From: Candidatus Heimdallarchaeota archaeon
Lineage (GTDB): Archaea; Asgardarchaeota; Heimdallarchaeia; Hodarchaeales; Hodarchaeaceae
Length of the DNA stretch: 64,000 nt
Assembly: GCA_020353515.1 (NCBI GenBank)
Contig: CP070695.1
Coordinates: forward strand, 2,390,966-2,454,965
Direction: 5' to 3'
Part shown: positions 55,117 to 55,306 of the stretch, in pieces
Position numbering within the stretch: position 1 is the first letter of the stretch
Layout: the number at the start of each line of letters is the position of its first letter
Program-made: the position numbers and the translations under genes
The notes under the pieces: model-generated
Databases searched by the model: none
Told to the model about the DNA's origin: nothing
What the model saw: the letters and a program-made list of their open reading frames with translations, nothing else

Positions 55117-55188
55117 CAGCCCCGCCCAGAATCGAACTGGGGTTATAGGATTCAGAGTCCTAAGTGATAACCGCTACACCACGGGGCT
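55117..55188 (-). tRNA. tRNA-Gln(CTG)
   Basis: AGCCCCG/CGGGGCT acceptor, TAGGA-CTCTGAA-TCCTA anticodon arm, CCCAG-TTCGATT-CTGGG T arm; discriminator G; no encoded CCA; no intron. Confidence 0.96.
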
Positions 55189-55233
55189 CATCATGCGAAT
55201 CATCATATTTAAGTCAAGTATAGAAGAAAGAAA

Positions 55234-55306
55234 CAGCCCCGCCCAGATTTGAACTGGGGTCGAGAGGGTCAAAGCCTCTTATGCTAGTCCACTACACCAC
55301 GGGGCT
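55234..55306 (-). tRNA. tRNA-Gln(TTG)
   Basis: AGCCCCG/CGGGGCT acceptor, AGAGG-CTTTGAC-CCTCT anticodon arm, CCCAG-TTCAAAT-CTGGG T arm; discriminator G; no encoded CCA. Confidence 0.96.

Follow-up and report, generated by a model that had tools for sequence, protein, structure and literature searches.

The window analysed here is the whole stretch of 64,000 nucleotides of Candidatus Heimdallarchaeota DNA; it is part of a single 4.94-Mb contig, and the genome is archaeal. It carries a glnS gene for a glutaminyl-tRNA synthetase (GlnRS) and, beside it, two tRNA-Gln genes, the nearer of which (anticodon CUG) lies 59 nt from the glnS 3' end in convergent orientation (Table 1). ARAGORN reads the anticodons as ctg and ttg, both on the minus strand, and Rfam model RF00005 scores the CUG gene at 62.1 bits and the UUG gene at 57.5 bits, with a gathering score of 29 bits. 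A tRNA-Gln covariance model, built from 22 diverse Asgard tRNA-Gln genes, gives 87.1 bits for the UUG gene and 80.5 bits for the CUG gene. All four stems pair in both genes, which are intron-free and do not encode CCA.

The two genes, which are paralogs and hence not independent observations, start with AGCCCCG and end with CGGGGCU-G, and have in common A1-U72, G2-C71, C3-G70, G10, U35, G36, A37 and G73. The 10-25 pair is G10-C25 in the CUG gene and G10-U25 in the UUG gene. The anticodon loops, CU-CUG-AA and CU-UUG-AC respectively, place A at position 37 in both tRNAs, followed by A38 in the former and C38 in the latter. The variable loops have 4 nt (UAAC and CGAC), and G18 and G19 are retained. 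In the D-loop, U precedes A21 where canonical genes carry C, and the D-loop of the CUG gene has 8 nt, one nucleotide less than the canonical one. The ortholog of the UUG gene in a related genome (G020) encodes ...GGGGCT-G-CCA; as CCA follows directly after the G, the discriminator G of the window genes is truly position 73. A preliminary description of the locus had listed the AGCCCCG acceptor end with its first three pairs, G10, A37 and G73 for both tRNAs, and ARAGORN, Rfam and the encoded CCA of the ortholog confirm these assignments.

Table 1. glnS and the four tRNA-Gln genes of the genome. Positions without a prefix are those of the window.
Feature	Position	Strand	Evidence
glnS, bacterial-type glutaminyl-tRNA synthetase, 572 aa	53339..55057	+	TIGR00440, Pfam, homolog scores, tree
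tRNA-Gln(CUG), glnS-linked class	55117..55188	-	ARAGORN; Rfam RF00005; tRNA-Gln covariance model; stem check
tRNA-Gln(UUG), glnS-linked class	55234..55306	-	ARAGORN; Rfam RF00005; tRNA-Gln covariance model; G020 ortholog
Canonical tRNA-Gln(UUG), G37/A73	C1:2761946-2762018	-	covariance model, sequence
Canonical tRNA-Gln(CUG), 35-nt intron, G37/A73	C1:3963581-3963689	-	covariance model, 73.7 bits

The glnS product matches TIGR00440 at 715.4 bits (cutoff 425.8) over profile positions 1-524, which bears out the earlier assignment of the neighbouring gene as a GlnRS. Pfam finds tRNA-synt_1c and both anticodon-binding domains, and the translated sequence contains the signature motifs HIGH and VMSKR. 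The protein scores 696 bits against Pseudomonas aeruginosa GlnRS (5bnz) and 666 bits against Escherichia coli GlnRS, compared with 470 bits for the human and 407 bits for the yeast enzyme; it is bacterial-type and full-length. Its best NCBIfam match is the GlnRS-YqeY fusion model (positions 7-566 of 769), a match that spans the GlnRS part only, the YqeY domain being absent. It has been reported that an unpairing loop of E. coli GlnRS opens the 1-72 pair of the tRNA via Leu136 (PMC2978374). The unpairing-loop region is kept in the window GlnRS, with Ser142 at the equivalent of Leu136; Ser is found there in 7 of 11 sequences of the genus and in none of 78 bacterial sequences. The equivalent of Asp235 is Thr or Ser in the genus (Thr in the window enzyme), Val or Ile in two further archaeal families with glnS (f3 and f4, see below), and Asp, Asn or Val in bacteria. 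A co-adaptation on the protein side at these two sites was considered and rejected as too weak, since three of the lineages with Leu also have G73 tRNAs and neither site tracks G73.

Next to be considered are the other tRNA-Gln genes of the genome. The covariance model finds exactly four, at 90.6, 87.1, 80.5 and 73.7 bits, and the next match, at 57.6 bits, is a tRNA-Glu. The two genes outside the window form a second UUG and CUG pair, and both carry A73 and G37, the bases that the preliminary description had given for model archaeal tRNA-Gln. The acceptor stem AGCCCCG/CGGGGCU is identical in the canonical and the window genes, and CCA is encoded in none of the four. The intron of the canonical CUG gene sits at the canonical 37/38 position within a bulge-helix-bulge motif. 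ARAGORN calls this gene (as C1:3963581-3963690) a tRNA-Phe(GAA), a reading that was rejected because the tRNA would have to lack nucleotide 26, have a variable loop of 3 nt and be split by an intron at 32/33. Its identity as Gln(CUG) is backed by the 37/38 bulge-helix-bulge, the score of 73.7 bits and nine orthologs. Position 33 of the gene is C, in contrast to the near-universal U33 of each of its nine orthologs in the genus. In its intron mode ARAGORN also reports two 'tRNA-Pyl(CUA)' genes (C1:2333099-2333206 and C1:2804467-2804667); we doubt them because of the miscalled Gln(CUG) gene, and they are probably mis-spliced readings of other tRNAs. The machinery of the indirect route is also encoded: there is a single archaeal GluRS (478.5 bits), and gatE and gatD are adjacent and intact (GatE 550 bits, GatD 455 bits). 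Both tRNA-Glu genes of the genome carry A73. The proposal that native tRNAs were re-tuned at the window locus is not upheld, as the native pair persists together with GluRS and GatDE and the window genes are an extra set.

The two classes were then compared across the genus. Among its 21 other genomes, glnS scores above the cutoff in 11 and was not detected in 10. In ten glnS-positive genomes, the window genome included, the linked tRNA-Gln genes share a contig with glnS and converge on it as they do in the window. The linked pair of G015 lies about 117 kb from glnS, and for glnS-positive G018 no tRNA match was obtained. In total, the linked class comprises 22 genes in 11 genomes, all glnS-positive, with 20 of the 22 on the glnS contig. 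Given this one-contig linkage, the co-occurrence of glnS and linked tRNAs among metagenome-assembled genomes is non-independent evidence. All 22 linked genes have A37 together with G73, a count that includes two genes with a D-loop intron (G003 and G008) and a third, from G019, whose intron lies close to the T arm. In G003 and G008, the linked UUG gene carries an insert of about 33 nt after A14-G15 (L015 and L007, respectively), and in G019 (L021/L012) an insert of about 30 nt separates the variable region from the T stem of the linked UUG gene; ARAGORN and simple patterns overlook linked UUG genes with such non-canonical introns. The canonical class is represented in the genus by 14 genes from 11 genomes, all with G37 and A73 and most with introns of 27-41 nt at 37/38. 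Both classes were demonstrated in eight glnS-positive genomes, and the glnS-negative members in which a tRNA-Gln gene was found (G001, G017 and G021) showed the canonical class only.

When mature tRNA-Gln sequences of the genus (15 from the linked and 13 from the canonical class) are aligned, exactly three of the 73 columns are fully class-diagnostic: the D-loop base before A21 (column 21; U in linked versus C in canonical genes), N37 (column 38; A versus G) and N73 (G versus A). G10, U35 and G36 are common to both classes and thus do not discriminate between them. The preliminary description had named positions 37 and 73 before the canonical paralogs were seen, and these are two of the three diagnostic columns; it spoke of two changed positions and missed the third, in the D-loop. 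By simple arithmetic, the chance that both N37 and N73 fall among three randomly fixed sites of 73 is about 0.001. All four stems form in each aligned sequence of either class, with a common U13-U22 as the sole non-standard pair, and compensatory double changes are present in both classes alike; this argues that both are structurally constrained and maintained. The three sites stay fixed over a divergence of the genus at which GlnRS identity falls as low as 67%. Each linked isoacceptor is slightly closer to the canonical gene with the same anticodon, and the quartet sites are split 4 to 5, favouring neither one nor two duplications for the origin of the linked pair.

In the wider Asgard census, glnS is restricted to three families of one class, namely f1 (with the window genus), f3 and f4. 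Its score passes the cutoff in 34 of 61 members of this class, compared with 0 of 123 genomes belonging to the phylum's other classes. GatE is kept in 55 of the 61 class members, those with glnS among them, and is above the cutoff in all glnS-positive genomes of the genus. To tabulate N73 and N37 with and without glnS, as had been suggested, we used 69 tRNA-Gln genes of Asgard genomes without detectable glnS (57 from outside the class, 8 from families f2 and f5, and 4 from the genus). G73 occurs in 1 of the 69, A37 in 9, and the combination of A37 and G73 in none, as compared with 22 of 22 linked genes; the tabulation supports the combined signature, while A37 by itself is also found without glnS. 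The nine A37/A73 genes belong to families f14 and f27, in which glnS was detected in none of 25 genomes (many of them 98-100% complete) and none of 2 genomes, respectively. The single G73 case, with G37, comes from family f11 (G109:C14:31834-31895, no glnS found) and is the sole G73 tRNA-Gln encountered beyond the window genus.

The glnS-bearing families f3 and f4 provide the other half of the comparison. Their tRNA-Gln genes have A73 throughout except for one U73, and encoded CCA in many of them makes the N73 call unambiguous; G73 as a general requirement of archaeal GlnRS therefore does not hold. Every glnS-adjacent tRNA-Gln that could be read has A37 (20 in the genus, together with those of G024, G056, G058, G025 and G033). 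Two complete glnS-positive f3 genomes (genus g7) have a single tandem pair, UUG with A37 and CUG with G37, and the latter is their only CUG isoacceptor. In f4 there are two copies of the UUG isoacceptor gene: one lies next to glnS and has A37, and the other is unlinked and carries G37 in G025. The unlinked tRNA-Gln(UUG) of G033 (f4; L134:21-96, plus strand) has A37, the eukaryote-type discriminator U73 and an encoded CCA, and its G025 ortholog is G37/A73. A 3' CCA is encoded in many tRNA-Gln genes of the class (L118-L126 and L131-L134, from f2, f3, f4 and G017, and L014 from G020); this may be connected with a report that Heimdall-group archaea have CCA-adding enzymes of mixed types (preprint 10.64898/2026.05.29.728689). 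These distributions give G73 the appearance of an adaptation confined to the genus. A37 is not limited to lineages with glnS and is dispensable in them, being present without glnS in f14 and f27 and replaced by G37 in the sole CUG isoacceptor of glnS-bearing f3 genus g7, which weakens it as a GlnRS-specific adaptation. The suggested co-adaptation of the tRNAs to the neighbouring GlnRS is partly supported: it may hold for G73, and A37 fails the refuting condition set out in the preliminary description.

The genus GlnRS proteins share 62-67% identity with many bacterial enzymes and 56-61% with the f3/f4 archaeal GlnRS. In a quick maximum-likelihood tree (LG+G4) of the archaeal GlnRS and 40 bacterial sequences from many phyla, a supported branch (SH-aLRT 95) has the archaeal enzymes all to one side, with the genus and f3+f4 as sister clades (support 100 each). 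On this placement, a separate glnS acquisition by the genus was rejected; a single old acquisition from bacteria fits best. The f3/f4 frames (L008:1483-3450, minus strand; L009:1114-3105, plus strand) encode proteins of about 650-670 aa with an N-terminal extension of about 90-115 aa, which the window enzyme lacks. The extension is without a Pfam match and was not retained as a YqeY-like tRNA-binding domain; it might offset the missing G73 in the A73 families.

We propose that the window probably holds a module for direct glutaminylation, in which a bacterial-type GlnRS has its own G73/A37 tRNA-Gln pair as preferred substrates. From the gene content, the two tRNA classes, their fixed differences and their distribution, all directly observed, we infer which enzyme charges which tRNA as well as the direction and the selective cause of the changes. 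In the proposed scheme, the linked CUG and UUG tRNAs would be derived from the archaeal tRNA-Gln scaffold by changes at three positions that are now fixed (A73 to G73, G37 to A37, and the D-loop C before A21 to U), and GlnRS would preferentially charge the resulting tRNAs. In the tRNA bound to E. coli GlnRS, an intramolecular contact made by G73 stabilises the hairpin of the acceptor end. With the anticodon splayed out, U33 and A37 form a pair, which would favour A37 over m1G37. G73 would accordingly be the main gain, giving the acceptor end the hairpin conformation needed by an E. coli-type GlnRS, and A37 would remove m1G37 and permit the U33-A37 pairing in the loop. For the native G37/A73 tRNAs, the single archaeal GluRS would go on attaching Glu, and GatDE would go on amidating it. 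As this GluRS is presumably non-discriminating, GatDE could not be lost, which would account for its retention everywhere. The D-loop change and G73 may also reduce recognition by GatDE and GluRS. How far the association of G73 with glnS can be generalised is limited, since G73 goes back to one evolutionary change within one genus (n=1), and the f3/f4 GlnRS belongs to the same clade and has A73 tRNA-Gln, so that the enzyme family can evidently do without G73.

An alternative is that the fixed changes serve insulation rather than attraction: they would act mainly as anti-determinants, with G73 repelling a GluRS that reads A73 and/or the D-loop change impeding D-loop reading by GatDE. The two routes would thereby be kept apart, and GlnRS itself would be fairly tolerant of N73. 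Both tRNA-Glu and both canonical tRNA-Gln carry A73, so every presumed GluRS substrate is A73, and the third diagnostic site lies in the D-loop, which GatDE reads together with A1-U72 (PMC2330236, PMC9499178); in f3 and f4, GlnRS of the same clade coexists with A73 tRNAs, which suggests an enzyme that does not depend critically on N73. On the other hand, the discriminator is irrelevant to GluRS2 of Helicobacter pylori (PMC2777447), and the linked tRNAs keep the A1-U72 pair needed by GatDE. We regard it as unlikely that insulation is the whole cause, and it is compatible with a direct-glutaminylation module rather than exclusive of it. A stronger form, in which GlnRS with the G73/A37 tRNAs and GluRS-GatDE with the A73/G37 tRNAs are two mutually insulated systems and thus a natural orthogonal pair, can be put forward only tentatively; because they retain the A1-U72 determinant of GatDE, the linked tRNAs may also be GluRS/GatDE substrates. 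If the systems are insulated, they would show that direct glutaminylation can be installed in an Asgard-type host by duplicating and re-identifying tRNAs, the native ones being left unconverted, and each route could be under a control of its own, such as nitrogen or oxygen status.

The differences could also be neutral, the linked genes having arisen by a chance duplication next to glnS, with accidental fixed differences and tRNAs interchangeable between the routes. The G73 genes all come from one genus, in which one ancestral change could suffice, A37 and G37 vary freely among Asgard families regardless of glnS, G73 occurs once without glnS (G109), and tRNA gene clusters beside unrelated genes are common. 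Neutral divergence would nevertheless have to place both sites predicted from GlnRS biochemistry among only three fixed sites of 73, with the chance of about 0.001 given above, while other positions vary and show compensatory changes in both classes; both isoacceptors carry all three changes, and 10 of 11 genomes have retained the linkage to glnS. We consider this explanation improbable. That GlnRS and the linked set are midway through replacing the indirect route, with the canonical tRNAs and GatDE as decaying relics, is very improbable: the unusual C33 of the canonical CUG gene in this genome (U33 in its nine orthologs) and the introns of canonical genes, absent from most linked genes, could be read in this way, but canonical genes are conserved in 11 genomes with intact stems, conserved splice geometry and compensatory changes, GatE is above the cutoff in every glnS-positive genome of the genus, and glnS is undetected in 10 of 21 relatives, which makes the indirect route the constant and the GlnRS module the accessory.

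A direct-glutaminylation module in this genus would bear on a long-standing explanation. It is stated in a 2022 review that archaea lack GlnRS (PMC9499178; likewise PMC2330236), and the absence has been explained by the divergent identity of archaeal tRNA-Gln, with A73 and A1-U72 (PMC9499178, PMC2330236); archaeal tRNA-Gln is charged by neither E. coli nor yeast GlnRS, which has been proposed as a barrier to acquisition (PMC2330236, PMC9499178). GlnRS beside cox genes has been mentioned for Hodarchaeales and Kariarchaeaceae (Appler et al., preprint 10.1101/2024.07.04.601786), and the transfer of GlnRS to Archaea is mentioned in passing elsewhere (PMC8879553). In the searchable literature we found only such passing mentions of GlnRS for these archaea, nothing on the tRNAs, and no archaeal GlnRS with a dedicated, re-identified duplicate tRNA-Gln set. 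The genus offers a natural experiment on the tRNA-identity barrier to GlnRS, with matched tRNA pairs, three differences and both routes in one genome, and the sister families f3 and f4, with the same enzyme lineage and A73 tRNAs, are a built-in control. A charging comparison could reveal whether G73 (and A37 and U20b) lets a bacterial GlnRS use an archaeal tRNA body. As the lineage is an Asgard one, the result would bear on how direct glutaminylation is installed on an archaeal translation apparatus.

Several elements of the arrangement have precedents. The coexistence of direct and indirect routes and the partition of tRNAs between class Ib enzymes are already known in bacteria (H. pylori, Acidithiobacillus ferrooxidans and Deinococcus radiodurans), and dual Cys routes are known in methanogens. 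D. radiodurans shares a prokaryotic GlnRS that coexists with an amidotransferase, GatCAB. There GatCAB serves Asn, not Gln, and the GlnRS has a C-terminal YqeY domain, which the window enzyme is without. Methanogens with SepRS/SepCysS and CysRS likewise have a direct and an indirect route in one archaeon, but both use the same tRNA-Cys, and we know of no dedicated duplicate tRNA set for the dual Cys routes. In that system, only the enzyme of the indirect route uses G37 as an identity element (PMC2330236). The GluRS1/GluRS2 pairs of H. pylori and A. ferrooxidans also place two related class Ib synthetases in one cell and partition their tRNA substrates by a few acceptor or D-arm features (PMC2777447, PMC9976931). 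In those bacteria the enzyme specific for tRNA-Gln attaches Glu, needs GatCAB and serves a single tRNA-Gln population. The window genome instead has a GlnRS as its second enzyme, and duplication has given it two classes of tRNA-Gln genes.

The nearest relatives are the two parent systems. In the archaeal indirect route, for which Methanothermobacter thermautotrophicus is the paradigm, a non-discriminating GluRS and GatDE act on an A1-U72/A73 tRNA-Gln. GatDE recognises A1-U72 and the D-loop (PMC2330236, PMC9499178), in the latter positions 19/20, and canonical archaeal tRNA-Gln has the discriminator A73 (Marck and Grosjean, as cited in PMC9499178) and a four-nucleotide variable loop (PMC2330236). 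The genome shares with this route its GluRS, GatD, GatE and two canonical-type tRNA-Gln, and the linked tRNAs share A1-U72 and the 4-nt variable loop; they differ in G73, A37, the altered D-loop base and the neighbouring GlnRS. In the E. coli system, GlnRS recognises its tRNA by G73, the first three acceptor pairs, G10, U35 and G36 (PMC3467082), with G73 as a major element (PMC2777447, PMC3467082). The window GlnRS is about 58-60% identical to the E. coli and P. aeruginosa enzymes and has the domain order of the E. coli system (1GTS/1QTQ family), and the linked tRNAs share with E. coli tRNA-Gln G73, G2-C71, G10, U35, G36, A37 and a 1-72 pair that is weak but inverted. They differ from it in having A1-U72 instead of U1-A72, C3-G70 instead of G3-C70, and A38 or C38 instead of U38; on the enzyme side Ser142 replaces Leu136 and Thr replaces Asp235, and the host is an archaeon that also retains the indirect route. 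The linked tRNAs are hybrids, as the preliminary description had recognised: they depart from the canonical archaeal class in lacking A73 and from the E. coli class in lacking G3-C70, U38 and the orientation of the first pair, and combine features of both.
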